From assembly GCA_963776915.1 (NCBI GenBank), contig CAVZPE010000004.1, positions 513,812 to 577,811 of the forward strand: 64,000 bases of DNA, given 5' to 3'. The notes under the pieces are model-generated. The model searched no databases. It was given only the letters and a program-made list of their open reading frames with translations, and had not been told where the DNA came from. Positions 14,086-61,168 of the stretch are shown here, piece after piece (position 1 is the stretch's first letter; every line of letters begins with the position of its first letter). The position numbers were made by a program, and so were the translations under genes. This stretch comes from an uncultured Acidobacteriota bacterium. Its GTDB lineage: Bacteria > Acidobacteriota > Thermoanaerobaculia > UBA5066.

Positions 14086-14285
14086 TTTCGAATTGTACCG
14101 GAGGAAGAGATGAATATTTCTGCTTAAGAGGGGAGAACGAGGGATGCAGTCGCGGCCGGCCGGAGCAAGGGCGCGTCGGAGCGCCGCTTCGCGGGCGAAG
14201 ACCGCTTGACAGCGGCCGGACCGCGCTCAGCTTTCCGGCCTATCGGCGGCTGCATTCGCAGCCGTCGCATCTAAGAGAAAAATCC
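14086..14285. repeat. Mosaic palindromic repeat, copy A (type-2 arms), between divergent purA and hutH
   Basis: The arms are AATATTTCTGCTTAAGAGGGG (14113) and CGCATCTAAGAGAAAAATCC (14266), in inverted orientation. The interior GC-rich hairpins include CGGCGGCTGC-ATTC-GCAGCCGTCG. About 190 nt align by eye with copy D at 37170-37360. Confidence 0.75.
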
Positions 14286-16833: not shown

Positions 16834-17088
16834 AAGAAGAGAGGAGAGGAAGAGGAAGAGGGAGATTTGCTGAGAGGGTCCCGAGCGGAGGCGCGGCCGG
16901 AGCGCTTCGGGCGGGCGGATCGCGAGGGCTCGGGCGATTGAAGATTTTCTTCGAAGGTGGTTAGAAAGGTCGAAAAGAACGGCGATGCCGCCGCGGCGAC
17001 CGGGCCTCTGTGCTTGCCGCCCGCACCGCGCACGGGACCATTCGAAGAAGTCTTCTCTTCCTCTTCCTTCTCCTCTTCTTGCTCTTCG
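16834..17088. repeat. Mosaic palindromic repeat, copy B (composite), bridging the two ArsA-like genes
   Basis: A polypurine run (16834-16860) is mirrored by a polypyrimidine run (17055-17088). The cores are GGAGATTTGCTGAGAGGG (16862), GAAGATTTTCTTCGAAGGTG (16941) and ACCATTCGAAGAAGTCTTC (17038). Two GC-rich loops lie between them. The minus-strand frame stays open ([37 protein letters not shown]). Confidence 0.8.
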
Positions 17089-17871
17089 GCCGCTTCCTCG
17101 TCGATCTCGGGCATCTCGACCATCGGAACGCCCGTCTCCCTCTTCGGCAGAATCTCCTCTCTTCCTCCCCGTCCGACCCGGTTCACGACGACGAGCGCCG
17201 TCGCGACACCCGCCGCGCCCCTGGCGCCCGCGACGAGCTCCTCGGTTTCGGTCGCGGCGAGCTCGGCAGGCTCGGCGACGGCGACGAGCGCGGTCTTCGC
17301 CGGGTCGGAGAGGAGGGCGTCGACGTCGAGAGCGAGCTTGCGGAGCGGGCCGGCGGGGACGGTCTTCAGGATCGTGCGGGGGAGCGAGAGGAGGGAGAGC
17401 GCGTGGCCCGTGGCGGGCGCGTCGAGGACGACGAGGTCGTAGCGCGGCTCCGTGCGCGGTGCCGCGCGTCCGCTTGAGGATCTCGCGGATCTTCCCGAGC
17501 AGGAGGAGGTCGGGCAGCCCCGGCGTCGCGCGCGTGAAGAAGCGGAAGACGGGGAGGGCGAGCATCCGGTCGCCGAGGAGGCGCACCGGTGCGACGGCGT
17601 GGACGAAGTCCGTCAGCAGCGCGTCGAAGTCCGTCGTGATCCCTCGGAGTCCCTCCGCGAGCGGCGCCTCGTCGTACCCACGGTCCTCGCGGCCGAAGAG
17701 AACGGCGGCGTCGCCGCGCCCGTCGGTCGAGACGAGGAGGACCGAGCGGCCCGACCGCGCGGCGAGGGCGGCGAGAGCGGCGGCGACGGTGGTCTTTCCG
17801 ACGCCGCCTTTCCCCGAGACGACGAGGACGGTTCGGGACGCGAGGCCCCGGAGGAGATCGGGCGCGCTCAC
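17089..17871 (-). pseudogene. ArsA/Get3-like P-loop ATPase (upstream member), one frame change near 17450
   Basis: The start reads MSAPDLLRGLASRTVLVVSGKGGVGKTTVAAALA..LLVSTDGRGD. After KIREILKRT the protein continues in another frame (EPRYDLVVLDAPATGHALSLLSLP..ALVVVNRV). No stop occurs before repeat B. Confidence 0.65.
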
Positions 17872-33344: not shown

Positions 33345-35972
33345 ATGCGCGCGACGCCCATGCTCGAGCAGTACTGGGCACTGAAGCGGGAAGCGGGGGA
33401 CGCGATCCTTCTCTACCGCCTCGGGGACTTCTACGAGATGTTCTTCGAGGACGCCGAGATCGCGGCGCCGCTCCTCGGCCTCGTGCTGACGGCCCGCCAC
33501 AAGGACAGCGACATCGAGGCGCCGATGTGCGGGATCCCGCAGCACGCCCTCGAGACGTACCTCGCCCGGCTCGTGGGAGCGGGCAAGAAGGTGGCGATCT
33601 CCGAGCAGACCGAGGCGGCGGCCAAGGGGCGGACGCTCGTCGCGCGGAAGATCGTCCGCGTCGTGACGCCGGGGACGATCGTCGACCCGGAGCGGCTCGA
33701 CGCGCGCCGGCCGAACGAGATGGCCGCCGTCGCCTGGAACGGCGACGGCGCGGCCGTGTCGTCCCTCGACCTCTCGACGGGCGACTTCTCCGTCCTGCCG
33801 CTGCGCGACGCCGGGTCGCTGTCGGAGTGGCTCCTCCGCCGCGCCCCGCGCGAGCTCGTCGTCTTCCCCTCGGACCGCGAGCGGGCCGAGGCGCTCCTCG
33901 GAGCCCTGCGCTCCGGCTGGGCAGAGCCCCCGGCGCTCTCGGCGCTCGCCGCCGAGTCGCCCCGCGGCGCGAGCGCCGCCGAGCTCCTGAAGCGCCACTT
34001 CCGGACCGCGACGCTCGAGCCGTTCGGCCTCGGCGAAGGCGGCCCCTCCGTGGATGCGGCCGCGGCTCTCCTGTCGTACGCGCGGTCGACGCAGCGCTCC
34101 GACTGCGACCACGTGCGTTCGCTGCGGCACGAGACCGAGGGCGAGGGGCTCGTCGTCGACTCGGTCACGGCGGGCCATCTCGAGCTCTTTCGCTCGGCGC
34201 GCGACGGGAGCGCGAACGGCACACTCGTGTCCCTCCTCGACCGGACCGGGACGGCCTTCGGGGCGAGGACGCTGCGCCGCCTCCTCGAGCGCCCGCTCGG
34301 AAAGATCCCGGAGATCGAGGCGCGGCTGGACGCCGTCGAGGAGCTCATGGCCGACGCGGCCCGCCTCGAGGCGCTCGCGAAGGGATTCCGCGAGATCCCC
34401 GACCTCCCGCGCCTCGTCTCGCGCCTCGCGGTCGGCGCGGGGACACCGCGCGACCTCGCCGCGCTCGCGGCGGGGCTCGTCCGCGCGGGCCGCCTCGCCG
34501 GGACGCTCGACGGCGTCTCCTGCGCGCTCCTCGCGCCGGGCGGTGAGGCCTCGCCCGACGGCGTGCCCTTCGGGCTGGGGGAGTCCGTGTCGGCACGCCT
34601 CGTGGCCGAGCCGCCGCCGACGGCGAAGGACGGCGGCCTCTTCCGCGACGGCGTGGACGCGCTCGTGGACGAGATCCGGACCCTGCGGCGCGAGTCCGCG
34701 ACCGTCCTCGCGGCGCTCGAGGCCGACGAGAAGGCGGCGCGCGGGATCCCGACGCTGCGCGTGAAGTTCAACCAGGTCTTCGGGCACGTCTTCGAGGTTC
34801 CCGGCGCCGCCCGCGCCAGGATCCCGGAGGGCGCGCTCAAGCGCCAGACGCTCGCGAGCGTCGAGCGCTACGCGACGCCCGCGCTCGTGGAGGTCGACGA
34901 GAAGCTCCGCACCGCGGACGCGCGCCTCGCCGCGCGCGAGCTCGAGCTCTTCCTCGAGCTCGTCGGCGAGGTCGTGGAGGCGTCGGGCCGCATCCTCGCC
35001 GCGGCCGCGCGCCTCGGGCTCCTGGACGCGCTCGTCTCGCTGTCGCGCGTCGCCCGCGGCGCGGGCTGGTCGCGGCCACGCCTCGTCGAGGAGCCGGTCC
35101 TCGACGTGGAGGGAGGCCGGCACCCCGTCGTCGAGGCCCTGCGCCCGCGCGAGCCGTTCGTTCCCAACGACGCCTCCCTGGGAGGAGAGGGCGCGCACGT
35201 CGTCGTCCTCACGGGCCCGAACATGGGCGGCAAGTCGACGTACCTGAGGCAGAACGCGATTCTCGTCCTCCTCGCGCACGCCGGCTCGTTCGTCCCCGCG
35301 GCTTCCGCGCGCGTCGGGCTCTGCGACCGCATCTTCACGCGCGTCGGCGCGTCGGACTCGCTCGTCCGCGGGGAGTCGACGTTCCTCGTCGAGATGGCGG
35401 AGACGGCGCACATCCTGAGGCACGCGACCGGGCGCAGCCTCGTGATCCTCGACGAGATCGGGCGCGGAACCTCGACGTTCGACGGCCTCTCGCTCGCGTG
35501 GGCGATCGCCGAGCACCTCCACGACGCCGGGGTGCGACGCGTGCTCTTCGCGACGCACTATCACGAGCTCACGGAGATGGCGCTCGTGAAGCCGGACGTC
35601 GTGAACCGCACGATGACGGCGAAGGAGTGGAACGGCGAGGTCGTCTTCCTGCGCAAGGTGTCGGACGGGACGGCGGACCGCTCGTACGGCGTCCAGGTCG
35701 CACGGCTCGCGGGCATCCCGGAGCCGGTCCTCGCGAGGGCGCGCGAGATCCTCGGCAACCTCGAGCGCCACCAGCTCGACGTCGGCGGGCGCCCCGTTCT
35801 CGCCGAGCACGCGGGCGCGCCGCCCCAGAAGGACACGCAGCTCGACCTCTTCCGCGGGCAGGGCGAGCTCGTGCTCGACACGATCGGCAAGGCCGACATC
35901 GATTCCATGACGCCGCTCGCGGCTCTGCAACTGCTGGCCACCCTGCAGCACCGGCTCCGCGGGGAGGACTGA
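33345..35972 (+). CDS. mutS: DNA mismatch repair protein MutS
   Basis: This is an intact 875-aa ORF. It carries TPMLEQYWALK, GDFYEMFFEDA, the Walker A motif GPNMGGKSTYLRQ, and DEIGRGTSTFDG. Confidence 0.97.
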   Translation: MRATPMLEQYWALKREAGDAILLYRLGDFYEMFFEDAEIAAPLLGLVLTARHKDSDIEAPMCGIPQHALETYLARLVGAGKKVAISEQTEAAAKGRTLVARKIVRVVTPGTIVDPERLDARRPNEMAAVAWNGDGAAVSSLDLSTGDFSVLPLRDAGSLSEWLLRRAPRELVVFPSDRERAEALLGALRSGWAEPPALSALAAESPRGASAAELLKRHFRTATLEPFGLGEGGPSVDAAAALLSYARSTQRSDCDHVRSLRHETEGEGLVVDSVTAGHLELFRSARDGSANGTLVSLLDRTGTAFGARTLRRLLERPLGKIPEIEARLDAVEELMADAARLEALAKGFREIPDLPRLVSRLAVGAGTPRDLAALAAGLVRAGRLAGTLDGVSCALLAPGGEASPDGVPFGLGESVSARLVAEPPPTAKDGGLFRDGVDALVDEIRTLRRESATVLAALEADEKAARGIPTLRVKFNQVFGHVFEVPGAARARIPEGALKRQTLASVERYATPALVEVDEKLRTADARLAARELELFLELVGEVVEASGRILAAAARLGLLDALVSLSRVARGAGWSRPRLVEEPVLDVEGGRHPVVEALRPREPFVPNDASLGGEGAHVVVLTGPNMGGKSTYLRQNAILVLLAHAGSFVPAASARVGLCDRIFTRVGASDSLVRGESTFLVEMAETAHILRHATGRSLVILDEIGRGTSTFDGLSLAWAIAEHLHDAGVRRVLFATHYHELTEMALVKPDVVNRTMTAKEWNGEVVFLRKVSDGTADRSYGVQVARLAGIPEPVLARAREILGNLERHQLDVGGRPVLAEHAGAPPQKDTQLDLFRGQGELVLDTIGKADIDSMTPLAALQLLATLQHRLRGED

Positions 35973-35987
35973 CCTTGCGTGGGACGT

Positions 35988-36168
35988 CCGAAGAGCGACG
36001 AAGGAAGAAGAAAGAAGATTCTCTTAGAAGGTGAAGAGGGGCGTGGCTGAGTCGGGCGCCCCGCGTTTCGTGTTCGGCCTGCACGGCCCCGCGCTGGATG
36101 CGGAGGAGAGGGCCTTTTTTTCGGCGCATCCGCCTCTCGGCTTCCTCCTGTTCAAGAGAAATCTTCAA
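35988..36168. repeat. Repeat copy C: polypurine arm plus forward core (35988-36042), with the partner reverse core at 36143-36168
   Basis: The left arm is CCGAAGAGCGACGAAGGAAGAAGAAAGAAGATTCTCTTAGAAGGTGAAGAGGGG and contains the nagZ GTG start. The partner TTCAAGAGAAATCTTCAATCGCCC matches copy B (reverse complement TTCGAAGAAAATCTTCAATCGCCC). Native NagZ N-terminal codons lie between the two cores. Confidence 0.65.
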
Positions 36169-37149
36169 TCGCCCTCACAAGTCGTGTCGCTGATCGAGGA
36201 GCTGCGAGGGCTCGGGGGGGCGGGAGCGGCGCCCGCCTCCGCGGGCGCCGCTCCCGCCCCGCTCCTCTTCGTGGACCAGGAGGGCGGGACCGTGGACCGC
36301 ATCGGCCCGCTCCTCGGCGTTCCGTTCGCGTCGGCCGCGGCCTGCGCGGAGGCCGGGACGGACCGCGTGCACGAGAACGCGTACCTCATGGGCCGGGCCG
36401 CGCGCCTCCTGGGATTCGACGTGGACTTCGCGCCCTGCCTCGACCTCGGGCAGCCCGGCGCGGGCGCGGTCGTCCTCGAGGGCCGGTGCTTCGGCTTCCA
36501 CGCCGAGGACGTCGTGATCGGCGGGATGGTCTTTCTCCACGGCCTCGCGCGCGCGGGCCTCGCGACCTGCGTCAAGCACTTCCCGGGTCTCGGGCGCGGC
36601 GCGGTGGACTCGCACGCGAAGCTGCCCGTCGTGGACGCGCACGACGTCGACCTCATGGTCACGGACGTCGCGCCCTTCGCGAAGCTCGGCCGCGGGGCCG
36701 ACGGGGTCATGGTCGGCCACGCGGCGTACCCCGGCTTCGAGAACGGAGCGATCGTGCCGGCGTCGCTCTCGCCGCGGATCCACGGAATCCTGCGCGGACC
36801 CGTCCGCTTCGAGGGCGTCGTCTACTCGGACGACCTCGAGATGAACGCTCTCGAGGGGACGCTGCCCGAGCGCGCCGAGCGCGCCGCGGCCGCCGGCTGC
36901 GACGTCGTGATCCTCTCGAGGACGTTCGAGGCCTACGCCGAGGCGGTCGCCCGCGTGGACGCCCTCGGCCCCGATGCCGCCCGCGCCGGGCGTCTCGACG
37001 CCCTCCGCCGCCGCGTCGCGGGCGCCCCGCGCCCGCGGTTCACCGAGGAGGCCTGGGCGAAGCTCGCGGAAGAGGCGGCAGCGTTCGGGGAGTTGATGTC
37101 GAAGCCGAGAGAGAAGAGAAGAGACGAAGACTTCGGAAGATTTTCTTAG
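36031..37149 (+). CDS. nagZ: Beta-N-acetylhexosaminidase (GH3, NagZ-like)
   Basis: This is an intact 372-aa ORF. LDAEERAFFSAHPPLGFLLFKRN, DQEGGTV and KHFPGLG are GH3 N-terminal domain motifs. The last 16 codons and the TAG stop lie in repeat D. Confidence 0.85.
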   Translation: MKRGVAESGAPRFVFGLHGPALDAEERAFFSAHPPLGFLLFKRNLQSPSQVVSLIEELRGLGGAGAAPASAGAAPAPLLFVDQEGGTVDRIGPLLGVPFASAAACAEAGTDRVHENAYLMGRAARLLGFDVDFAPCLDLGQPGAGAVVLEGRCFGFHAEDVVIGGMVFLHGLARAGLATCVKHFPGLGRGAVDSHAKLPVVDAHDVDLMVTDVAPFAKLGRGADGVMVGHAAYPGFENGAIVPASLSPRIHGILRGPVRFEGVVYSDDLEMNALEGTLPERAERAAAAGCDVVILSRTFEAYAEAVARVDALGPDAARAGRLDALRRRVAGAPRPRFTEEAWAKLAEEAAAFGELMSKPREKRRDEDFGRFS

Positions 37150-37370
37150 AAGGGAGAAGAGAGGAAAGAGGAAGATTCTTCTGCTAAGAGCGGCCGCTTC
37201 TCGCGGCCGCTCCGGAACGAATCTGTGCGCGCGCCGGGCTGTCAAGGGCGCGCTTCGCGCGCCGCGTAGCGGCCGAAGGCCCTTGACAGCGCGCCGCGCG
37301 CCCATCTTTCCTCGGCGGCGGCTGCGCATGCAGCCGCCGATAGCAGAAGAAATCTTCTCTTCTTCTCTCT
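37106..37370. repeat. Mosaic palindromic repeat, copy D (long form), between convergent nagZ and ssb
   Basis: The outer arms are GAGAGAGAAGAGAAGAGACGAAGA and TCTTCTCTTCTTCTCTCTTC. The cores are GAAGATTTTCTTAGAAGGGA (37136), GGAAGATTCTTCTGCTAAGAGC (37170) and GCAGAAGAAATCTTCT (37343). The interior hairpins are GCGGCCGC-TTCTC-GCGGCCGC, CTGTCAAGGGC...GCCCTTGACAG and CGGCGGCTGC-GCAT-GCAGCCGCCG. Confidence 0.85.
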
Positions 37371-37796
37371 TCAGAACGGGACGTCGTCGTCCGCGTCGCC
37401 GCCCTCCGGCGCCTCCGGCGCCGCAGCAGTGACGCCCGAGCTGGAGCCCGCGTCGGGCCGGCCGCCGAGCATCTTCATGTCGCGGGCCTTGATCTCCGTC
37501 GCATAGCGCTTCTGCCCGGACTCCTTGTCGTCCCAGCTGCGCGTCTGCAGCGAGCCCTCGATGTAGACGAGGCGGCCCTTCGACAGGTAGCGCTCGCAGA
37601 TGCTCGCGAGCTTGTCGAAGGCGATGACCGTGTGCCATTCGGTCTTCTCCTGCTTCTGCCCGCTGGCGCGGTCGTTCCACGTCTCGGTCGTCGCGACCCT
37701 CAGGCGCGCGATGGGGACGCCGCCGGTCGTGGCGCGCATCTCGGGGTCGGCGCCCAGGTGGCCGATCAGGATGACTTTGTTGACAGAACCAGCCAT
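37371..37796 (-). CDS. ssb: Single-stranded DNA-binding protein
   Basis: A 141-aa protein starts at the internal ATG 37796 of ORF 37371-39446. The sequence is NKVILIGHLGADPEMR..EKTEWHTVIAF with the acidic tail DADDDVPF. Confidence 0.9.
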   Translation of the reverse strand: MAGSVNKVILIGHLGADPEMRATTGGVPIARLRVATTETWNDRASGQKQEKTEWHTVIAFDKLASICERYLSKGRLVYIEGSLQTRSWDDKESGQKRYATEIKARDMKMLGGRPDAGSSSGVTAAAPEAPEGGDADDDVPF

Positions 37797-37835
37797 GGCT
37801 CCTCCGATGGGCCCGGATCCTACAATCCCCCCGGC

Positions 37836-39401
37836 TTGAGCGACACGCGGAACCTCGTCCGGTCGACCTGGGGCATCACCGCGTGGGCGGTGCTCTCCCG
37901 GCTGGCGGGCGTCCTGCGCGACGCGACGATCGCCCGGTTCCTCGGGGCCTCGGCGTCGTCGGACGCGTTCTACACGGCGTTCCGGATCCCGAACACCTTC
38001 CGCGCGATCGTGGGGGAGGGGGGCCTGCCGGGGGCCTTCGTGCCCATGGCCAAGAAGGTCGAGCGCGAGCGCCCCGGCGAGGAGGGCGCCTACGCGGGCC
38101 GGATGCTCCTCCTCCTCGGCTGCGTCCTCGTCGGGCTCGTGGCCGTCGGGATCCTCCTCGCCGAGCCGATCGTCGCCCTCTTCGCGAGCGGCTTCCGGTC
38201 GACACCCGGCAAGTTCGAGCTGACGGTCCTCCTGACGCGGTGGATGTTCCCGTACGTCCTCCTCGTCTCGGTGGCCTCGCTGTTCGAGGCCTACCTCAAC
38301 TCGAAGGGGTTCTTCCAGCTCTCCGCCGCGACTCCCATCGCGTGGAACCTCTCGATCGTGGCGGCCGCGTGGCTGCTCGCGCCCGCGGGCGTGCCGCCGC
38401 TCACGGCCCTCACGGCCGGGGTCCTCGTCGGGGGCACCATGCAGGCCGCGCTGCAGGGGCCCGCGGTCCGCCGGCTCGGCCTGCGGTTCGAGGGATCGCC
38501 GTTCCGGGACCCGGAGGTGCGGAGCACGGCGCTCCGGATCGCCCCGCGCCTCTACGGCGCCGGGGTCGGGCAGCTCTCGTTCCTCGTCTCGAGCCGCACG
38601 CTCGCGGCCCTCGGCGACGCGTTCGTGACCTACAACTTCTGCGCCTTCCGCCTCGTGGACTTCGTCCTCGGCGGTTTCGTCGTCTCCCTCACGCGCACCG
38701 TCCTTCCCTCCCTGTCCGAGCAGGCGCTCGGGAAGGACCGTTCGGCCTACAAGGCGACCGTGGCGTTCGCCCTGCGCCTCATCGGGTTCGTGACGATCCC
38801 GTCCATGGTGGGCCTCATGCTCCTCGCCGCGCCGATCGTCGACGTCGTCTTCCGGCGCGGGCGGTTCGCGGAGGGAGACGTCACGAAGACGGCGCTCGCG
38901 GTCGTGTTCTTCGCCCTCGGGCTCTACGCGGCGGCGGGCGTGAAGATCGTGACGCAGGCCTTCTACGCGCTCCACGACACGCGGACGCCGGTCGTCGTCG
39001 CGACGTTCGACCTCGCCGTGTTCTGGACGCTGTGCGTCTGGCTCGCGAAGCCCATGCAGCACGCGGGCGTCGCCCTCGCGACGTCGGCGGGGTTCTGGAT
39101 CAACTTCCTCCTCCTCCTCGCCCTCCTCTGGCGGCGGCTCGGGTCGCTGGGCGGGCGCGTCGTGATCGCGGCGCTCGCGCGCCTTCTCCTCGCGAGCCTC
39201 GGGATGGGGGGCGTCGTGTGGCTCTTCGCGCACCGGCTCGTGCCGTACGACTTCCGGTGGGTCTTCCTCGCGCGCGCGGGCTGGGTCGCGGGCGCGGCCG
39301 CGCTCGGCGCGGCGGCGTTCCTGGCGTTCGCGGCGCTGCTCCGCGCGCCGGAGGTCGGGGAGGCGCTCGGCGCCCTGGGGCGGAAGAGGGTGCCGTCTTG
39401 A
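37836..39401 (+). CDS. murJ: Lipid II flippase MurJ
   Basis: I chose the TTG at 37836, in frame with ORF 37632, giving MSDTRNLVRSTWGITAWAVLSRLAGVLRDATIARFLGAS..DAFYTAFRIPN. The protein is polytopic throughout. Confidence 0.85.
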   Translation: MSDTRNLVRSTWGITAWAVLSRLAGVLRDATIARFLGASASSDAFYTAFRIPNTFRAIVGEGGLPGAFVPMAKKVERERPGEEGAYAGRMLLLLGCVLVGLVAVGILLAEPIVALFASGFRSTPGKFELTVLLTRWMFPYVLLVSVASLFEAYLNSKGFFQLSAATPIAWNLSIVAAAWLLAPAGVPPLTALTAGVLVGGTMQAALQGPAVRRLGLRFEGSPFRDPEVRSTALRIAPRLYGAGVGQLSFLVSSRTLAALGDAFVTYNFCAFRLVDFVLGGFVVSLTRTVLPSLSEQALGKDRSAYKATVAFALRLIGFVTIPSMVGLMLLAAPIVDVVFRRGRFAEGDVTKTALAVVFFALGLYAAAGVKIVTQAFYALHDTRTPVVVATFDLAVFWTLCVWLAKPMQHAGVALATSAGFWINFLLLLALLWRRLGSLGGRVVIAALARLLLASLGMGGVVWLFAHRLVPYDFRWVFLARAGWVAGAAALGAAAFLAFAALLRAPEVGEALGALGRKRVPS

Positions 39402-45978: not shown

Positions 45979-46817
45979 ATGAAACGCGCTCTCCTCGCCT
46001 CCGCGCTCCTCCTCGCCGCCTCCCGCCTCCGCGCAGACGCGCGTGACGTGCGGCACGGTCGACGCGCTCGAGGTGACGTCCCTGACGCGGACGAGGGTCA
46101 CCGCCTTTCTCCGGACGAAACTTCCGGACGCGCCCGCCGGCGCGAAGAGTTTCTTCGAAGGGAAGATCGAGCTGGCGAACACGATCCTGCCGGTCGGGCA
46201 GCCGGTGACGTTGCTCGTGCAGCACGTTGCGGAGGGCCACGAGGCCGTCTTCCTCGTCGATCTCGAGCTGTCCCGGGTTCCCGCCGAGCTCGTCGCACGA
46301 CTCCATTCCGCCGCGCTCGATTTCACGCTCGAAGGAAATCTCCGGACCTCCGCCGGCGCGACGCCGCACCCCGTGTGCGCCGCCGGCGTCCTGCGCGTCG
46401 GGACGAACGACATCCGGGCGGTGGGCCCCGTCGGCCAGGACTTCGCGAGGTTCTCCGGCGTGCGCTTCGCGCGGAATCTCCCTCGCCGAGACGCAGGGCG
46501 AGGCGTCCGTGGTCATCTACAACCCGCTGTCCTTCGCGCTCGACGTCAAGGACCTCGTGTACGAGATCCGCGCCGGCGACCGCAGGGTGGCGTCCGGCGA
46601 GCGCCACGGGATCCGGATCTACCCCGGCCGCGAGACTTCCGTCGACCTCCCGGTCGTCGCGGGCAATGCCGACCTCGCCGCCGCCCTCGCGGGCGCCGCC
46701 CTTTCGGGCGGGCGCGTCGAGGGACGGCTCGTCGCGACGATCTCCGTGAAGGTCGGAAAGGACCAGGTCATGACCGTTCCGCTCAACCTCCCCGGGGCGA
46801 TCCAGGTGGTGCCGTGA
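45979..46817 (+). pseudogene. LEA_2 / WHy-like lipoprotein, two frame changes (about 46040 and about 46480)
   Basis: The pieces are MKRALLASALLLAAS.. (ORF 45979), TCGTVDALEVTSLTRTRVTAFLRTKL.. (ORF 46043) and ETQGEASVVIYNPLSFALDVKDLVYEIRAGDRRVASG..MTVPLNL (ORF 46227). The family call is by eye. Confidence 0.45.
46144..46343. repeat. Inverted core pair inside the LEA_2 gene
   Basis: GAAGAGTTTCTTCGAAGGGAAG lies at 46144 (coding KSFFEGK). GCTCGAAGGAAATCTCC lies at 46327 (coding LEGNL). Both are AT-rich patches in GC-rich coding sequence, in forward-then-reverse orientation. Confidence 0.5.
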
Positions 46818-47614: not shown

Positions 47615-49600
47615 CGCGCGGGCGGCCCTTCCGGCGCGTCCTCGTCGCGAACCGCGGCGAGATCGCAGTGCGCGTCGTCCGCGGCTGCCGCGCGGCGGGC
47701 CTCGCGTCGGTGGCCGTGTACTCCGAGGCGGACCGGAACGCGCGCCACGCCGCGCTCGCCGACGACGCCGTCGAGATCGGCCCGGCGCCGGCCCGGGAGA
47801 GCTACCTCTCGATCCCGAGGCTCCTCGCGGCGGCGAAGAGCGACGGGCTGCGACGCCGTGCATCCCGGCTACGGCTTCCTGTCGGAGAACGCGGACTTCG
47901 CGCGCGCGGTCGAGGAGGCGGGGCTCGTCTGGATCGGCCCTCCGCCCGAGGCGATGGAAGCGATGGGGAGCGAAGATCGCATCGCGAGAGAACGGATGAG
48001 AGCGGCCGGCGTCCCCGTCGTGCCCGGCGCGCTCATCGCCGGGTTCGAAGAGGACGAAGAGAGAGAGAAGATTTCTTCGAATGGTAAAGAGGGCGGGGCG
48101 CGCGGTGGCGCCGCTCGGCGCGCGGCGGGGCAGCCCGCAACCTCTGGCACCTTCAAAGAAATCTCTTCTTCTTCTTCCTCTTCCTTCAAAGAAATTCTCT
48201 CTCTGGGTCTTCCCGTCGTCGTCAAGGCTTCGGCGGGAGGCGGCGGCAAGGGGATGAGGGTCGTCCGCTCGTCTGCGGAACTCTCCGAAGCCATTTCTTC
48301 CTGCCGCCGCGAGGCGGCGGCGGCGTTCGGGGACGCGACCGTTTACGTCGAGAAGTACCTCGAGAATCCGCGCCACGTGGAGGTCCAGGTCTTCGGCGAC
48401 TGGCACGGCAACGTCGTCGCGATCGGCGAGCGCGAGTGCTCGCTCCAGAGGCGTCACCAGAAGGTCGTCGAGGAGTGCCCGTCTCCGGCCGTGACGCCGG
48501 AGCTGCGCGCGCGCCTCCTGAAGGCCGCCGTCGACGCCGCGAAGGCGGTCGGCTACGTGAACGCCGGGACGGTGGAGTTCCTCCTCGCGCCCTCGGGCGA
48601 GTTCCATTTCCTCGAGATGAACACGCGCCTGCAGGTCGAGCACCCGGTCACCGAGGAGGCTTTCGGCGTGGACCTCGTCCTCCTCCAGCTCGCCGTCGCG
48701 GCGGGGGAGAAGCTGCCGCCTCTCCCGTCCGTCCCGATCCGCCATGCGATCGAGGCGCGGGTCTACGCGGAGGATCCCGAGGCGGGGTTCCTGCCTCAGG
48801 CGGGGCGCGTCCTCCTCTATCGCGAGCCCTCGGGACCCGGCGTGCGGGTGGAGTCCGGCCTGGCCGAGGGCCAGGACGTCGGCGTCCACTACGACCCGCT
48901 GCTCGCGAAGGTCGTCGCCTCCGGCGCGACGCGCGACGAGGCCCGGCGGCGCCTCGTCGGCGCTCTCGGGGAGACGGTGATCCTCGGCGTCTCGACGAAC
49001 GTCTCGTGGCTGCGCCGGCTCCTCGAGACGCCCGAGGTCGCAGCGGGGGCGATCCACACGGGCCTCCTCGAGACTCTCCCCGTGCCCGCGCCTCCGGCGC
49101 CGCCCGACGAGGCGTTCGCGGCGGCCGCGGCGGCGCTCGTCCGGAGCGGCGCCCTCCGGTCCCGGCGGTCCCGTCCTCGCCGACCCATTCGACGGCCGGT
49201 TCCGGACCGGAGGCGGCGCGTGAGGCTCCGCGAGGCGGCGACGGGGGCGTCGCGCGAGGTCCGTCCCGGCGGGATGCCGCGCGGAGCCTTCGCCGCGCGG
49301 GACGGCGAGGTCGCGTGGGTCTTCCTCGGCGGCGAGACGTGGCGCATCTCGAAGGCGCCGGCCCGGGCCGCCCGCGCGGCGGAGGAGGAGCACGCCCTCA
49401 CCGCTCCGATGCCGGGCAGGGTCTCGGCCGTGCGCGTGTCCGACGGGCAGGCCGTGGAGAAGGGCGAGGTCCTCGTCGTGCTCGAGGCCATGAAGATGGA
49501 GCACGCCGTGAGGGCCCCGCGAGCCGGAATCGTCGCGCGACTCGCCGCCGAGCCCGGGAAGATGGTGGGGCTCGGGGACGTTCTCCTCGACGTCACATGA
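47611..49600 (+). pseudogene. mccA: Methylcrotonyl-CoA carboxylase alpha subunit (biotin carboxylase + BCCP), about 3 frame changes plus an in-frame repeat insertion
   Basis: The GTG at 47611 forms a GTGA overlap. It carries FRRVLVANRGEIAVRV (ORF 47182), HPGYGFLSEN..KASAGGGGKGMRVV..EMNTRLQVEHPVTE and the biotinyl site EAMKME (ORF 47858). The frame changes lie near 47850, 49145 and 49215. Confidence 0.85.
48044..48203. repeat. Palindromic repeat, copy E, in-frame inside mccA
   Basis: The left arm is GAAGAGGACGAAGAGAGAGAGAAGATTTCTTCGAATGGT. A GC-rich loop follows. The right arm is CACCTTCAAAGAAATCTCTTCTTCTTCTTCCTCTTCC, and CCTTCAAAGAAAT is duplicated. The translation is EEDEEREKISSNGKEGGARGGAARRAAGQPATSGTFKEISSSSSSSFKEILS. 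Confidence 0.85.
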
Positions 49601-55354: not shown

Positions 55355-56155
55355 ATGGAGGCCCCGGAGCTCGACGAGTCCACGTACGCGACGAGAGTCG
55401 AGGACGCCTTCATCGCCGAGCGCGGCACGCCCTTCCTCCTCTCGCCGAAGGACTGGACGCTCATCCGCGGCTGGCGCGAGGGCGGGATCCCGGTGGACAC
55501 CGTGGTCCGGGCCGTGCGGGAGGCGTTCGAGAAGCGGCGCGCGCGCGGCCAGGCCGGCAAGATCTCGTCCATCGCGTACTGCGCGAACGCCGTCGAGGAG
55601 CTCTGGGAGATGGAGCGCCGGGGCCTCGTGGGCAAGGCCCACGAGGCCCCCCCGGCGGGCGCGAACGCGCCCGCGAGAGGAGAGAAGTCTCTTGCTTTGC
55701 TCTCGGATCGTCTGCGCGCGATGAGCGACGCTCTCGCGACCATGGACGGCGCTGAAGATCTTCTTAGAAGGGTGAGTGGGGCCGGGGCGGCGGGCAGCGC
55801 CGGTGCGGCTCCTCGAGCGGAGGGCGCCCCAAACACCTTCGAAGAAATCCCCCTCTTCTCGTCCCTCCGAAAGTCGCTGAGCTCCGCCGCCTCGAAGATC
55901 GAGGCGCTGCCGCGCGATCTTTCATTCGAAGAATCCGAAGAGAAGCTCTCCGTGATCGAGGCGTCGCTCGTGAAGTCGGCCCTCCGCGTCCTGCCGTCCG
56001 AGCAGCAGGCTCTCGTCGAATCCCGCGTGTCCTCCGCCCTCGGCGACGTCGCCGGCGTGTCGCCCGCGGTCGTCGAGCGGATGCGCCGGGCGCTCACGCG
56101 CCGCGAGGTGCGCCTGCTCCTCGGCCTGCCGGCCCTCACGCTCCTCCATGGCTGA
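55355..56155 (+). CDS. Hypothetical protein with a conserved N-terminal domain; the C-terminal half carries repeat H
   Basis: This is an intact 266-aa ORF. The N-terminus AFIAERGTPFLLSPKDWTLIRGWREGGIPVDTVVRAV looks like a conserved uncharacterised family that I cannot name. Confidence 0.55.
   Translation: MEAPELDESTYATRVEDAFIAERGTPFLLSPKDWTLIRGWREGGIPVDTVVRAVREAFEKRRARGQAGKISSIAYCANAVEELWEMERRGLVGKAHEAPPAGANAPARGEKSLALLSDRLRAMSDALATMDGAEDLLRRVSGAGAAGSAGAAPRAEGAPNTFEEIPLFSSLRKSLSSAASKIEALPRDLSFEESEEKLSVIEASLVKSALRVLPSEQQALVESRVSSALGDVAGVSPAVVERMRRALTRREVRLLLGLPALTLLHG
55754..55860. repeat. Palindromic repeat, copy H, in-frame inside the 55355 gene (an extra core lies at 55919-55940)
   Basis: The forward core is GAAGATCTTCTTAGAAGGGTGAGTGGGG, and its last 22 nt are identical to copy F. 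A GC loop follows. The reverse core is CACCTTCGAAGAAATCCCCCTCTTCTC. The translation is EDLLRRVSGAGAAGSAGAAPRAEGAPNTFEEIPLFS. Confidence 0.8.
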
Positions 56156-57520
56156 GGTCCGCCCGGGCGACGCCCTCGAGGCTCTCGTCGAGCGCGTCGT
56201 GCCCGGGGGCGAGGGGCTCGCGCGAACGGAGGGCGTCGTGACGCTCGTGGCGGGCGGCCTGCCGGGGGACCGCGTCCGGCTGCGGGTGGAGGACGCGTCT
56301 CCCCGCCTCATCCGGGGTCGCGCGGAGGAGATTCTCGAGGCGGGCGAGGCGCGCCGCCCGGACGCCGACGTCTGCGGCCTCGCGCGGAGCGGCGCCTGCG
56401 GCGGCTGCGACTGGCCCGCTGCGCGGCCGGAGCACCATCGCGCGCTCAAGACCGAGCTCGTCCTCGACGCGCTGCGGCGGCTCGGCGGCCTCACCGCGGC
56501 CGACCTGCCCGAGCCGCGCTGGCTGGGTTCCCCGCCGAACTACCGCCTCCGCAACCGGCTGCACCTCGACCGCGAGGGGCGCCTCGGCTTCTTCGCGCCC
56601 CGCTCGAAGGCGGTCGCGGACCTCGAGGGCTGCCAGATCGTGTCGAAGCCCTTCCTGGAGCGGCTCCCGGCGCTCCGGGACCACCTTCGCTCGATGGGGC
56701 CGATGGAAGGGGAGCTCTTGACCCTGGAGTCGCGCGACGGGAAGACCCTGCTCGGCGAGTTGCGGCTCTCGGCGGGTGACGGTCTGCAAATTTCTTCGAA
56801 GGTGAAAGAGAGAGGGAGAGGGCCGTTCGACGGGTTTCGCGTCGTCGATGCGGGTGGGCGGCTGCTCGCCTCGGACGGTCCCTCGTCGCTTTCCATCGAG
56901 GCAGGCGGCGCCTCGTTCGACGTGCCGGTGTCTTCCTTCTTTCAAGGAAATCTCTTTCTCCTCGATTCGTTCCTCGAGGAGATCCGGACGGCGCTTCGCG
57001 CCGGAAGAGAAGAGAAGATTTTCCTAGAAGGGAAGAGGGGGGAGGCGCGCGCTTGCGCGCCGTGGATCTCTATGCGGGCGTCGGGTTCATGACGCGCCCT
57101 CTCCTGGAGCTCGCGGCCGAGATGGGAGGCGGCGAGGTGACGGCCGTCGAGATCGACCCGGCGTCGTCCCATTCACTTTCAAAGAATCTTCAGGCCTGGC
57201 AGAAGGAGGGCCTGCCCCTCGCGCGCTCGATCCGAGCCTCCGCTGAATCCTTCTTCCACTCGAAGAAATCCGAATCTTCGGTCTCTCTTCTCCTCGCGGA
57301 CCCTCCGCGCGCCGGCCTGTCGCCCGAGGTGCGGAAGGGGCTCCTGCGGCTCGCGCCGCCGCGCGTCCTGATGGTGTCCTGCGACCCGCCGACGCTCGCC
57401 CGCGACCTCGCGGCGCTGAAGGAGCGCTACGCGGTGACGCGCCTGACGCTCCTCGACCTCTTCCCGCAGACCCACCACGTCGAGACGGTGGCCTTGCTCG
57501 CCGCGCGTCCGATCGGATAG
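56148..57520 (+). pseudogene. 23S rRNA (uracil-5-)-methyltransferase RlmD/RumA-like (TRAM, Fe-S Cys cluster, SAM MTase), one frame change near 57040
   Basis: ORF 56148 carries CGLARSGACGGCDW and SSFFQGN. ORF 57053 carries VDLYAGVGFM, LLADPPRAGL, MVSCDPPTLARDL and DLFPQTHHVETV. The join falls in repeat I-3 at a G6 run. Confidence 0.8.
56788..57293. repeat. Cluster I: five core copies inside the rlmD-like gene
   Basis: The five cores are AAATTTCTTCGAAGGTGAAAGAGAGAGGGAGAGGG (56788), CTTCTTTCAAGGAAATCTC (56936), GAAGAGAAGAGAAGATTTTCCTAGAAGGGAAGAGGGGGG plus the GGCGCGC-GCTT-GCGCGCC hairpin (57004-57060), CTTTCAAAGAATCTTCAG (57175) and CCACTCGAAGAAATCCGAATCTTCGGTCTCTCTTCTCC (57256). Confidence 0.7.
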
Positions 57521-57529
57521 AAGCCGCGC

Positions 57530-59955
57530 ATGAGGCGCTCGTGGTCGCCCGGGGCGGGCGCGCCCTCGCTGCCGGCCGCGTTCGCGATCGCCGCGGGCAT
57601 CGCCGCGGCCGTCTCCTTCGCGGTCCCGCCGTCCGCCGTTCGCCGGCGGCGCGCTCGCTCGTGGCGTCGCTCGCGGGAATCGCCGCGGGACGGGCGCACG
57701 GCCGCGCCGCGGCTCTCGGCGGCCTCGTCCTCGCTGCGGCCGCGGGCTTCTGGTCGGCCCGCGCGCGCTGGCTCCTCCCCGCCGGCCGGGCGGAGGCCTC
57801 GGCCCGCGCCGCGATCGCCGAGGCGCTCGCCCGCGACGCGGAGGCGGGCGGCGCGCTCGTGGAGGTCGTCGGACGCGTCGACGCGCCGTGGTCGCCGAGC
57901 GGCTCCCAGCGCCGGACCCGGCTCGACGTGGAATCGGCGGAATGCGGCGGAAAGCCCCTCGCGCTCGACGCGCCCGTCGCCCTCGTCGTCGCCGGCGAGA
58001 CCGACCCGTCGCCCATCGCCGAGGTCGGGGACCTCGTCCGCGTGAAGGGGACGCTGCGCCTGCCCGAGCAGGGCGGCCCCCGCCGGGCGCCCGTCGACCT
58101 GCCGGACCAGCCTCACCTGCTCCTCAAGAGCGGCGCCCAGATCGAGAGGATCTCCGGCCCCTCCGGCCCCTTCGCCGCCGTGCAGCGCGCCCGCGCCGCC
58201 GTCAAGCGCCGCCTGCGCGCGAACCTCGCGGGCGCGCCCGACGCGGACCGCACGGCCCTCGCCCTGCTCCTCGCGTTCGTCCTCGGCGAGACGCAGGACC
58301 TGCCGCTCGCGGCCGTCGGGGCGTTCCGCGACGGCGGCGTGGCCCACATCGTCGCGATCTCGGGCCTGCAGGTCGCGCTCGTCGCGGCGCTCCTCGGTTT
58401 TCTCGCGCGCAGGGCGGGAGTCTCGCTCCGGGCGCGCGACGCGATCGTCCTCGGCGCGGCTCTCCTTTTCGCGATCTTCGCCGGCGGCCGGCCGCCCGTC
58501 TGGCGGGCCGCGCTCATGATCGGCCTCTACCTGGCGGCGCGCCTCCTCGGACGGCCGACCTCGCCGGAGCACGTCCTCGGGTTCTCGGCGTGCGCGATCC
58601 TCCTCGCCGACCCGTCGGCCCTCTTCGACGTCGGCTTCCTCCTGACGTTCGCGGCCGTCTTCGGTCTCGCCGAATTCGGCGCGCCGGCCGTCGTCGCGCT
58701 CCGGAACCGGGGCGTGCCGGCGCCCGTCGCGGACGCGATCGGGGCGACGCTCGGGGCCGAGCTGGCGGTGCTGCCGATCCAGGCCTTCGTCTTCAACGTG
58801 GTTCCCTTCGTCGCCCTGCTCTCGAATCCGTTCATCGTGCCCCTCTCGGGCGTCTTCCTTCTCGCGGGCCTCGCGCTCCTGCCGCTTCTCCTCGTGTCGC
58901 CCGCCGTGGCCTCCTCCGCGATCGTCCCGCTGCGCCTGCTCTCGGACCTGCAGTTCGGGATCCTCGACGCGCTGGACCGGCTGCACGCCGTCCGCGTCGT
59001 CCCGACGCCGCCCTTCGCGCTCGCGGTGGCGGCGGCGGGTCTCCTCCTGGTCGCGGGCCTCGCCGCGGCCCGGCCCGTCCGCCGGGCGGCCCTCGCGGGC
59101 GGCCTTCTCGCGGTCGGGACGATCGTCGGCGCGTCCTCGGCCGCGGCGGCCGAGGGCACCGCCGTCCTCCGGTCGGTGGACGTCGGACAAGGGGACTGCT
59201 GGCTGCTCGTCACGCCGCGGGGACGCGTTCTCGTCGACGGCGGCGGCAGCCCCGACCGGGCGTACGAGTTCGGGCGGCTGCGCCTCATCCCGAAGCTCGC
59301 GGACCTCGGCGCGGTCGCGCTCGACGCCGTGATCCTCACGCACCCTCACCCGGACCATACGCGCGGCCTTCTCGCGGTCCTGTCGTCGCTGCCGGTCGGC
59401 CGCGTCGTCCTGCCGCGCGCCGCGCCGCGGAACGTGTTCCTCGACGAGTTCCTCGCCGTCGCGACGAGGCGGCGCCTCGTCCTCGAGCGGCTCGGCGCCG
59501 GGGAACGCTTCGAGGCGGCGGGCCTCGCCTTCGACGTGCTGCATCCGCCCGACGAGGCGTACGCCCGCGCCCGGGAGAACAACGGCTCGCTCGTCCTGAG
59601 GGCCCGTGTCGAGGGGCGGACCCTCCTCCTGACGGGCGACGTCGAGGCCGCGGCCGAGCGCGATCTCGTCGCGTCGCGCGCGGACCTCTCGGCCGACGTG
59701 CTGAAGGTCCCGCACCACGGGAGCCGGACGTCGACGACGCCGGAGTTCCTCGCCCGCGTGTCCCCCCGGATCGGGCTCGTCGGGGTCGGCCGGCGAAACC
59801 GGTTCGGCCATCCCGCGCCCGACGTCCTGGCGCGCCTCGCCCGCGCCGGCGTGCGCGTCTTCCGCACGGACCGGGACGGGGACGTCGCGCTGACGCTCGC
59901 GGCGGGACGCATTCTGCCGGCGTTCCCCGAGTCCGTCGCGCGGGTGCGTCCGTGA
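57530..59955 (+). pseudogene. comEC: DNA internalisation competence protein ComEC/Rec2 (with a metallo-beta-lactamase domain), one frame change near 57640
   Basis: The ATG at 57530 (ORF 57530: MRRSWSPGAGAPSLPAAFAIAAGIAAAV) joins ORF 57541. That ORF carries the competence domain and the MBL motif ILTHPHPDHTRG plus KVPHHGS. Confidence 0.85.
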
Positions 59956-60911
59956 GCGGGCCCGGGGGCGTCCTCGCGATCCTCGGCCCGACGGCGACGG
60001 GAAAATCCGAGCTGGCCGTCGCCCTCGCCGAGCGGCTCGGCGGCGAGATCGTGTCGGCGGACGCGTTCGCCGTCTACCGCGGGTTCGACGTGGGGACCGC
60101 CAAGCCGGGGCCCGAGCTGCGCGCGCGCGTGCCGCACCACCTCGTGGACGCGCGCGAGCCCACGGAGCCCTGGAGCGCGGGAGAATTCGCCGCCGAGGCC
60201 CGGCGGCTCTGCGGGGAGATCCTCGCACGCGGTCGGCTTCCGATCCTCGCGGGCGGAACCGGCTTCTACGTTCGCGCGTTCTTCGGCGGCCTCTTCGAGG
60301 GCCCGCGCCGGGACGACGCCGTCCGCCGCGCCCTCGAGGCCGTCTCGGCGCGGCGCGGGCCGGGCTCCCTCCGGCGGATGGTCTCGCTCCTCGACCCGGA
60401 GACCGCCGTTCGCCTCGCGGACGCCGACACCTCCCGGGCGATCCGCGTGCTCGAGATCCTGTTCCTCTCGGGCGTCCGCCCGTCCCGGCTCTTTCGCGAG
60501 CGGCCCGGCGCGGCGTGGACGCGGCCGGCGGTGAAGCTCCTCCTCACGTTGCCGCGTGCGGACCTCCATGACAGAATCTCGGAGCGATTCCGAACACGCT
60601 TTGTGACCGCGTTCCCGCATGAGGTCCAGGGTCTGCTCGCCGCCGGCGTGCCGGTCTCGGCGCCCGCGTTCTCGGCCATCGGGTATCGTGACACCGCTGC
60701 GTTCCTCGAAGGAACGCTCTCGGAAGCCGAGTGGAAGGAGCGGATCCTGAGGGACACGCGCCGGTACGCCAGGAGACAGGAGACCTGGTTCCGAAGGGAA
60801 CCGGGCCTCCTGCCGGTGTCGGCGAAGCGCCCCGACCTCGTCGATTTCGCGGAGCGCCTCGCGCGCCCGCTTCTTGCTTCTTCTCCGGGGAGCGAAGGGA
60901 GCCTTGCATGA
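59952..60911 (+). CDS. miaA: tRNA dimethylallyltransferase
   Basis: The GTG overlaps the comEC stop (GTGA). The sequence reads LAILGPTATGKSELAVALAERLGGEIVSADAFAVYRGFDVGTAKP..PILAGGTGFY. Confidence 0.85.
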   Translation: MSGPGGVLAILGPTATGKSELAVALAERLGGEIVSADAFAVYRGFDVGTAKPGPELRARVPHHLVDAREPTEPWSAGEFAAEARRLCGEILARGRLPILAGGTGFYVRAFFGGLFEGPRRDDAVRRALEAVSARRGPGSLRRMVSLLDPETAVRLADADTSRAIRVLEILFLSGVRPSRLFRERPGAAWTRPAVKLLLTLPRADLHDRISERFRTRFVTAFPHEVQGLLAAGVPVSAPAFSAIGYRDTAAFLEGTLSEAEWKERILRDTRRYARRQETWFRREPGLLPVSAKRPDLVDFAERLARPLLASSPGSEGSLA

Positions 60912-61168
60912 TCGGACCGCCGAAACCGCCCATCAACGTCCAGGATGGGTTTTTCTATCAGCTCCGGAAGGACAACACCGTCGTCGAGGTGACGCTGCTC
61001 TCGGGACGCACGCGGATCGGACGCATCCGCCGCTTCGACAAGTACGCCGTGGTCGTCGAGGTCGATGGCCGCGAGGAGATGATTTACAAGCACGCGATCG
61101 CGTCGGTGGCCTCGACCGGGACGAACGTCCCGTCCGTGCCCCCGCCCGTCCGGACTCCCGCGGTTTGA
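60908..61168 (+). CDS. hfq: RNA chaperone Hfq
   Basis: The ATG overlaps the miaA stop (ATGA). INVQDGFFYQLRKDNTVVEVTLLSGRTRIGRIRRFDKYAVVVEVDGREEMIYKHAI contains the Sm1 and Sm2 (YKHAI) motifs. Confidence 0.8.
   Translation: MIGPPKPPINVQDGFFYQLRKDNTVVEVTLLSGRTRIGRIRRFDKYAVVVEVDGREEMIYKHAIASVASTGTNVPSVPPPVRTPAV

Follow-up and report, generated by a model that had tools for sequence, protein, structure and literature searches.

A lineage-restricted repeat motif overlaps both ends and a conserved coding motif of nagZ in a group of Thermoanaerobaculia

In a 64,000-nucleotide stretch of the genome of an uncultured Acidobacteriota bacterium (Thermoanaerobaculia, lineage UBA5066; positions 513,812 to 577,811 of contig CAVZPE010000004.1, assembly GCA_963776915.1), here called the window, copies of one AT-rich repeat motif overlap the start, a conserved internal peptide motif and the end of nagZ, the gene for a glycoside hydrolase family 3 (GH3) beta-N-acetylhexosaminidase. 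Each arm of the repeat consists of an AT-rich core of 15-25 nt, GATTTYCTTNGAAGG[T/G]GA, and an outer purine-rich run. Every pair of arms in the window is convergent, with a forward core, GC-rich DNA and a reverse core. Over 32 orthologous loci, the association between a core upstream of nagZ, an AT-rich patch inside the gene and a long spacer behind mutS is perfect. The rare codons of the patch are kept by all relatives that bear the repeat family; therefore, the DNA or RNA sequence is selected on top of the protein code. The comparison shows that purifying selection maintains the cores as nucleic-acid sequence, in addition to maintaining the coding.

The comparison covered 32 orthologous mutS-nagZ-ssb loci (numbered with the prefix L), at least six of them contributed by a metagenome scan; L014 and L087 are near-identical in all regions shown and may be one genome. 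A forward core is present upstream of nagZ in 23 of the 32, and in all 23 the region coding for FxRN is AT-rich, ten of its codons having a GC content at third positions (GC3) of 0.2-0.6. Its asparagine codon is AAT wherever the frame is intact, while its arginine codon is AGA or has been replaced by glutamine (CAA or CAG). The nine loci without a core have ordinary codons at this place (GC3 0.8-1.0, with AAC and CGC or CGG). The conserved RFV codon lies 57-218 nt from the mutS stop in the core-bearing loci and 8-17 nt from it in the core-less ones, where the mutS stop and the nagZ start overlap in all nine genomes (ATGA, GTGA or TTGA). A previous interpretation of the window made from the letters alone, the sequence-only reading, had suggested that gene conversion or selection for the DNA motif itself might be at work, and that coincidence would be indicated by close relatives without the repeats using the same rare codons at FKRNLQ. 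All nine such relatives use GC-rich codons instead (CGC/CGG AAC CTC GAG), and selection for the motif, with rare codons retained in 23 of 23 core-bearing relatives, is the reading the data favour.

A codon alignment of ten core-bearing and five core-less genomes locates the effect within the gene. In the core-bearing group, GC3 is only 0.31 at LFKRNLQS and 0.19-0.5 over the C-terminal tail, with shallower dips (0.56-0.68) at alignment columns 57-61 and 341-345, against about 0.9 over the rest of the gene; in the core-less group it stays at about 0.9 throughout. In a tree computed without both nagZ gene ends, the core-less L085 is the sister of the core-bearing L007 and L008; therefore, the core state has changed more than once. 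Neither the codon alignment nor the tree includes the three frameshifted loci L003, L064 and L081, which were also omitted when tails were extracted. These are contigs of metagenome-assembled genomes, with names suggesting long-read assemblies; nagZ is frameshifted in all three and mutS also in L081, and the frameshifts probably arose as indel errors in assembly.

The repeat family is real and is restricted to one group of Thermoanaerobaculia. Almost all low-GC patches of the window, which has a GC content of 72%, are variants of the one motif. The 15-nt core GATTTYCTTNGAAGG occurs 14 times with up to two mismatches, where 0.25 occurrences are expected and shuffled sequences give two at most, and a related palindrome, GAAGANNTCTTC, occurs 13 times against two expected. 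An nhmmer profile seeded with 12 window copies recovers copies outside the seed, among them the core upstream of nagZ (36002-36046, E=3e-4), and matches orthologous nagZ loci in relatives of the window; about 50 other high-GC Acidobacteriota loci, together more than 1 Mb, contain no match at E<=0.01. Nearly every copy belongs to a convergent pair with defined spacing. Compact members have an interior of 63-66 nt and fold into hairpins of about 110 nt. Similarity between window copies is limited to the cores (matches of 13-25 nt), and some interiors are related across loci (74-85% identity). The copies are unevenly spread, most lying at 46-57 kb and none at 18-35 kb, and orthologous loci of 21 kb hold only one to three each.

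Several cores are intragenic, in nagZ, a biotin carboxylase gene, an RlmD-like gene, an ArsA-like gene and a gene around 46.1-46.3 kb. They are translated in differing frames, as EKISSNG, LQISSKV, EDFLRKEEG or DFGRFS followed by a stop. The core consensus has no GTAG and merely a trivial internal palindrome. At gathering score, Rfam identified only two tRNAs in the window, with sub-threshold chance matches at nagZ, and at permissive E-values it gave no family for the repeats. One such match, to the ALIL pseudoknot (RF01497) at 36111-36255, scored 27 bits against a gathering score of 50 and was judged to be chance; it overlaps a run of seven T (GCC TTT TTT TCG) within nagZ. We found no description of repeats in Thermoanaerobaculia in the literature.

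The reverse core inside nagZ is read as FKRNLQSP, part of a motif, G(F/I)(I/L)(L/Y)FxRN(I/L), that is conserved among solved NagZ structures. The sequence-only reading had noted that repeat-type DNA here overlaps a conserved GH3 motif, that the patch is nearly identical to the reverse core of another copy, B, and that simple insertion does not explain this; all three points hold. When copy B is reverse-complemented, the patch, TTCAAGAGAAATCTTCAATCGCCC, agrees with it in 20 of 24 nucleotides. An exact 16-mer, GGGCGATTGAAGATTT, is found in the window only at 16932-16947 (+) and 36159-36174 (-), and in none of 100 shuffles. As this 16-mer takes in flanking sequence outside the consensus, it suggests a single copying or conversion event with copy B, in line with the gene conversion proposed earlier. 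The window patch matches the family profile weakly (E=3.1), and orthologous patches in L064, L007 and L008 match it at E=7e-4 to 1e-2; the putative membership of the window patch is based on the 16-mer, these better-scoring orthologues and codon statistics. Among synonymous codons in the window, AGA makes up 0.6% for Arg, AAT 5.7% for Asn, CTT 2.5% for Leu and CAA 4.3% for Gln, and the product of these usages gives AGA-AAT-CTT-CAA a joint probability of 3.4e-7.

NagZ residues 1-47 are conserved in outgroups; therefore, the DNA between the two arms is native, and the internal reverse arm was written onto existing codons, in native conserved sequence, rather than inserted. In one subclade (L004-L006, L010, L015, L083 and L084), the peptide itself differs, LFxRN having become LSKQN (F to S, R to Q), and in these genomes about 20 nt of the patch are almost perfectly reverse-complementary to the forward core.

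At the 5' end, copy C contains a 15-nt core, GATTCTCTTAGAAGG, with one mismatch to the consensus. Its region holds an in-frame TAG (36025-36027), the Shine-Dalgarno-like sequences AAGGTGA and GAGGGG, and two candidate start codons, GTG 36031 and GTG 36043; the organism uses canonical Shine-Dalgarno sequences of the GGAGG type. The sequence-only reading had placed the start at GTG 36031, inside the forward core, and had the repeat supply it. This codon (36031-36033) does begin within the core, and the inserted core region does supply the start, but GTG 36043 is the more probable initiation codon. Six orthologues (L002, L005, L163, L164, L167 and L169) have an ATG at its position, a few (L015 and L166) have a start at the position of 36031, and both Shine-Dalgarno-like sequences lie upstream of it; the true start is thus probably 36043. 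Either candidate lies inside the repeat-derived stretch. The long spacer of purine arm and core, compared with the overlapping genes of core-less genomes, identifies the 5' core as an insertion into a translationally coupled junction. The inserted core now carries the initiation signals of nagZ, a ribosome-binding site and the start codon.

The 3' end has a different history. It had been proposed that the last 16 codons and the TAG stop come from the repeat. They do overlap the purine arm and an exact core, GATTTTCTTAGAAGG (37139-37153), and all four arginine codons of the tail are AGA, but they are not derived from it: the tail KPRxxRxDxDF..F occurs in repeat-less outgroups, in GC-rich codons. 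Therefore, the tail peptide is ancestral and only its codons have been recoded, in most of the clade. In outgroups without repeats, the stops of nagZ (TAG) and ssb overlap, as TTCTAGAA. The close relatives L165 and L166 have the tail KDPFAF and no core here, though they keep the 5' pair.

Among close relatives the junction of nagZ and ssb varies, with at least six states: overlapping stops without a core, a solo core, a compact element of 64 nt, a nested element, a type-2 module (as in the window) and a hairpin that we call X. The X hairpin, about 110 nt long, is found in L003 (8219-8335), L169 (1783-1893) and L083 (2583-2700, inverted), with a remnant in L167 (1798-1836), and matches no Rfam family. 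X is 96-97% identical between L169 and L083, in opposite orientations, in genomes whose nagZ DNA is about 73% identical; therefore, mobile hairpin modules use this junction. X is a probable mobile element of hairpin form with the core as its target, and in L003 and L169 the second core beside it is absent. Overlapping stops with no intergenic DNA (CTAG, as in …TAGAAC/AGG…) were seen in L004, L006, L010, L011-L013, L084-L086, L088, L165 and L166. The junction sequence TAGAA(C/G)GG is similar to the core's right half, so that the core motif could possibly derive from the stop junction of nagZ and ssb.

We tentatively rank first the reading that the cores are host-selected arms of putative mRNA hairpins, holding it to be somewhat short of an even chance. 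The ancestor would have had mutS and nagZ overlapping as ATGA or GTGA, and the stops of nagZ and ssb overlapping as in the repeat-less outgroups. In the clade of the window, a forward core with its arm would have entered the mutS/nagZ junction, giving nagZ its Shine-Dalgarno sequence and start. A matching reverse arm would have been written on native codons 37-44 (FxRNLxSP) by means of rare synonymous codons, rewriting that in one subclade may have extended to amino-acid changes. At the 3' end, the ancestral tail would have been recoded into arm and core with the stop codon, after which the junction would have gained hairpin modules repeatedly. In the proposed 5' stem, codons ~35-47 would be base-paired to the leader and the ribosome-binding region; this stem may set nagZ translation or stability once the coupling to mutS was lost; the proposed 3' hairpin may serve as a 3'-end or termination structure for both convergent transcripts.

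The stem has support from folding. Core and patch are complementary in all 12 orthologues tested, with z<=-2 against shuffled sequences in nine of them (down to -5.6), and the minimum-energy fold of the window pairs the core with the patch. The copy D region at the 3' end also folds, with the z-score given in Table 1. Judging by the ancestral operon layout, the leader is likely to be co-transcribed with nagZ.

A number of results weigh against this hairpin reading. Taken as a whole, the 5' fold does not exceed shuffled sequence in stability (z=-1.1), and the long-range stem is missing from the RNAalifold prediction for 12 orthologous nagZ 5' regions. Duplexes of cognate core and patch are no stabler than non-cognate ones, in long or short windows, and over 23 loci core variants (TTCTCTT or TTTTCTT) do not track patch variants (AAG AGA or AAA/AGA AGA). 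Compensatory changes suspected in the window, L015 and L008 failed after 11 further loci had been added. A comparison of G·U-compatible with A·C mismatches between the arms, meant to distinguish selection on RNA from selection on DNA, gives no sense-strand G·U bias (22 against 23), and 47 mismatches are transversions. Partnerless forward cores persist at the nagZ tail in L163, L164, L170, L004 and L010, and, as described above, L165 and L166 retain the 5' pair without the 3' core. Scans found neither a sigma-70 promoter nor a canonical terminator; over 35600-37900 there were no terminator-like sites, the pyrimidine arms being mixed C and U. No Rfam family matches either. A model in which paired cores form a DNA-looping operator was dropped because the spacing between core centres (79-180 nt) has no helical phasing.

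The alternative that survives best, possible if rather unlikely, takes the cores to be DNA-level terminal inverted repeats, or att-like targets, of a recombinase or transposase by which hairpin modules are moved, and to be homogenised by molecular drive, through transposition and ectopic gene conversion; the nagZ patch would then be native sequence captured and homogenised by conversion, without benefit to nagZ. The strict forward-then-reverse polarity is what terminal inverted repeats need. Presence/absence polymorphism at the nagZ/ssb junction, in the RlmD-like gene (element J) and in biotin carboxylase (absent from L005) fits as well, as do the near-identical X at the same junction of separate clades in opposite orientations, type-1 and type-2 interiors recurring at separate loci, the non-consensus flank within the 16-mer common to copy B and the patch, and the lack of both arm covariation and G·U bias. 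However, the internal arm of nagZ lies in native conserved coding sequence and hence was not inserted. Mutation pressure (GC3 ~0.9) should soon erase the patch, but 23 of 23 lineages retain it, and in one subclade amino acids have changed to fit it; excision or rearrangement between the arms would destroy nagZ. No clear target-site duplications were found: filled and empty sites in biotin carboxylase and at the nagZ/ssb junction have a loose direct similarity (TAGAAGG / CAGAACGG) and no consistent duplication. No transposase or REP-associated tyrosine transposase (RAYT) turned up in the loci of about 20 kb, a genome-wide search not having been made. As a selfish element leaves the retention of a native coding arm in all 23 lineages unexplained, we rank host-selected hairpins above mobile-element sites.

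A more novel reading is improbable in our estimate: an undescribed site-specific recombinase or transposase, possibly acting on folded single strands, would recognise the AT-rich cores and insert, flip and remove GC-rich hairpin cassettes there, the host would have co-opted pairs of these sites around native coding segments, and the nagZ segment from leader to codon 45 would be a switchable (invertible or excisable) module controlling nagZ.

More doubtful still is that the convergent pairs are inverton recombination sites, so that the leader-to-codon-45 segment is an ON/OFF switch and the junction modules flip. Regulons under one global invertase exist, as with Mpi in Bacteroides, and so do intragenic invertons. 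Many pairs here with one consensus inverted repeat flank segments of 64-180 nt, X is found in both orientations at one site, and Correia elements can invert (PMC10969869). Against this, the nagZ 5' segment is in the ON orientation in 23 of 23 assembled loci, the window arms are imperfect and contain indels, and no recombinase is seen near the locus. Since L003 and L169 have no second core by X, independent insertion fits its two orientations at least as well. Two truncated NagZ products considered as inversions were rejected: for P0020 in L081 the mutS call is broken too and nagZ lies in several frames, which looks like assembly frameshifts, and P0018 lies at a contig end with poly-G junk.

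We give very little credence to an uptake-signal-like sequence that would accumulate by biased DNA uptake and recombination and be fitted through codon choice. In its favour, the motif is short and lineage-specific, occurs in both orientations, is intragenic in several frames, is kept at orthologous sites and sometimes forms inverted pairs at gene ends; but the distribution is uneven (rich at 46-57 kb, none at 18-35 kb, one to three per 21-kb locus), and near-universal convergent pairing with defined spacing is not needed by uptake signals. Coincidence of composition, in which the patch reflects F, K, N and Q codons and the tail K, R, E and D residues, is scarcely credible, for although these residues do have AT-containing codons and the window patch reaches merely E=3.1, the preferred codons would be TTC AAG CGC AAC CTC CAG rather than the rare set calculated above, outgroups with the same or similar peptides use GC-rich codons, the 16-mer is common to copy B, and GC3 falls markedly only at the two places in nagZ (LFKRNLQS and the tail).

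Similar arrangements exist elsewhere in the window. In the two genes described next, the reverse core falls in a native motif and the forward core in an insertion, as in nagZ, which counts in favour of the hairpin reading. In the biotin carboxylase gene (47615-49600), a palindromic element at 48044-48214 lies in frame between VPG and PVVVKAS and adds about 40 residues. The insertion, ~85 nt of forward core and GC-rich DNA, is located upstream of the native helix TFEEIL/FKEIL, whose codons form the reverse core. The extra 27-40 residues are present in the window, L001 and L006 (a shorter version in the latter two) and missing from L005, L007 and L013; L005 has the reverse core only (TFEEIL), L007 and L013 neither core. 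The window gene also has a 33-nt tandem duplication (FKEISSSSSSS / FKEIL).

In the RlmD-like gene, the forward core of element J is an in-frame insertion of 13-16 codons, present in six of 12 relatives and absent from the other six, 142 nt upstream of an invariant SLSKNL (motifs SKNLQ/FFQGN). In the window, this 23S rRNA methyltransferase gene (56148-57520) has a frameshift near 57003-57020, in the purine arm of element J. The source assembly has a truncated product of 314 residues (P0237), full-length relatives having 440-465. A sequencing error, a pseudogene or slippage in (GAAGA)n could each account for the frameshift. Element B (16900-17110, minus strand) lies between two ArsA-like ATPase halves with no in-frame stop; judging by the translation, the halves may form a single fusion protein whose linker is encoded by the repeat (…EEKTSSNGP…FEENLQSP…). 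Another convergent core pair, 46147-46161 (+) and 46326-46340 (-), lies inside a coding region without an insertion and is kept with identical 164-nt spacing in L001, L002 and L003.

The type-2 module in the interior of copy D recurs at 14135-14270, at 37224-37345 and in L015 (9835-9944), with 73-76% identity. It consists of CTTGACAGCG…, a long GC hairpin, a hairpin GGCGGCTGC-nnnn-GCAGCCGCC and then GATAGCAGAAG; a small hairpin like that of the module lies upstream of nagZ in L008. At 59952-61168, a miaA-like open reading frame is followed by an hfq-like one (MIGPPKPPINVQDGFFYQLRKDNTV…), and Hfq would be a candidate binder of the A/G-rich arms.

Locally, the genes are ordered mutS (33345/33360-35972, +), nagZ (36031/36043-37149, +), ssb (37371-37796, -) and murJ (+); Table 1 collects the features. 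The nagZ product matches the Glyco_hydro_3 N-terminal domain (PF00933; E=1e-38, residues 37-311) and NagZ chains of the PDB (best E=4e-42). Against NCBIfam NF003740 it scores 161 bits, below the equivalog cut-off of 207, and it is a divergent NagZ-like member; by its NagZ homologues, the window belongs to Thermoanaerobaculia, phylum Acidobacteriota. What we take to be the NagZ signature, KH(F/I)PG(H/L)Gx4D(S/T)H, bearing the Asp-His dyad, is found in the translation as KHFPGLGRGAVDSH, and is invariant across the alignment. Directly past the reverse core, at 36214-36258, NagZ of the window and some relatives has a GC-rich low-complexity insert, GGAGAAPASAGAAPA. The metagenome contig of L082 (1-100) terminates at this insert in poly-G/poly-C junk, which suggests that assemblies break there.

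Table 1. Features of the nagZ locus, in window coordinates.
Feature	Positions	Strand	Remarks
mutS stop codon TGA	35970..35972	+	stop overlaps nagZ start in genomes without repeats
Copy C, purine-rich arm and forward core	35988..36046	+	nhmmer 36002-36046, E=3e-4; core 36017-36031
nagZ, GH3 beta-N-acetylhexosaminidase coding sequence	36043..37149	+	Pfam, NCBIfam, PDB homologues, orthologue N-termini; alternative start GTG 36031
Reverse core in nagZ codons, FKRNLQSP = TTC AAG AGA AAT CTT CAA TCG CCC	36151..36174	-	117 nt downstream of forward core
nagZ C-terminal tail SKPREKRRDEDFGRFS and TAG	37099..37149	+	recoded (AGA x4, GGA, TTT, TCT) to purine arm and forward core
Copy D forward core 1	37123..37163	+	exact 15-nt core 37139-37153, nagZ TAG inside
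Copy D second forward core GAAGATTCTTCTGCTAAGAG	37165..37190	+	partner is reverse core 37340-37370
Copy D GC-rich structured interior, type-2 module	37191..37339	.	inverted repeat, arms 37202-37249 and 37279-37326; fold z=-7.15
Hairpin GGCGGCTGC..GCAGCCGCC of copy D interior	~37321-37344		
Copy D reverse core and pyrimidine arm GATAGCAGAAGAAATCTTCTCTTCTTCTCTCTTC	37340..37370	-	abuts ssb stop
ssb	37371..37796	-	convergent to nagZ; stop 37371-37373; C-terminus DDDVPF

Two codes share one DNA segment at this locus, and as a natural example it is unusually clean. For a very long time, across 64-92% protein identity, a repeat motif has been retained in a conserved glycosidase motif, against strong GC mutational and codon bias, and one subclade pays for it with two changed conserved residues. 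At the 5' end of the gene, a repeat insertion replaces ancestral translational coupling with its own ribosome-binding site and start. The data also bring to light an undescribed repeat system in a class, Thermoanaerobaculia, known almost solely from metagenomes, where annotated starts, C-terminal extensions and apparent frameshifts may fall in repeat cores and assemblies may break. If either the RNA-hairpin or the recombination-site reading is true, nagZ offers a model, open to testing, of the way in which selfish palindromic repeats turn into fixed regulatory elements of housekeeping genes.

The closest known systems include Rickettsia palindromic elements (RPEs), small repeated palindromes of ~100-150 bp that lie in frame in unrelated housekeeping genes and are translated (PMC10969869). 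In-frame translated insertions are likewise present here in biotin carboxylase (element E), in the RlmD-like gene of relatives (J) and between the ArsA-like halves (B). However, RPEs are whole inserted units with a conserved peptide, whereas here only cores of 15-25 nt are common, in differing frames; in nagZ and elsewhere, one arm is native coding sequence recoded in place, and the cores form AT-rich islands in a 72% GC host genome. [quoted passage not shown] The present family resembles them in its terminal inverted repeats around a short interior (<500 bp), its many copies at gene starts and ends, and its presence/absence polymorphism at orthologous sites. It differs in that target-site duplications are not clear and no partner insertion sequence was found in loci of ~20 kb, in that interiors are mostly unrelated, without whole-element similarity, and in that arms are kept at orthologous coding positions while NagZ identity is 64-92%.

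Repetitive extragenic palindromic (REP) sequences and their BIME and REPIN arrangements are short hairpin repeats in inverted pairs, often at convergent 3' ends, that affect mRNA stability and translation. REPs are extragenic by definition, each palindrome having a conserved GTAG/CTAC end and a RAYT association. The inverted pairs described here form hairpins, too, but their cores are not hairpins alone, have no GTAG and are frequently intragenic. Uptake signal and DNA uptake sequences (USS/DUS) are lineage-specific motifs, fitted by codon choice, kept at orthologous sites and found as inverted pairs at gene ends; they differ from the present family in its polarity- and spacing-defined pairing and uneven density. 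Mycobacterial interspersed repetitive units (MIRUs) have ends that overlap the stop of one gene and the start of the next. The core described here likewise contains TAG, TGA, the Shine-Dalgarno-like AAGGTGA and GTG; MIRUs, however, are direct tandem repeats at operon junctions, neither inverted pairs nor located in conserved protein motifs. The family is thus a variant near to RPE-, MITE- and REP-type elements that lacks defining features of each.

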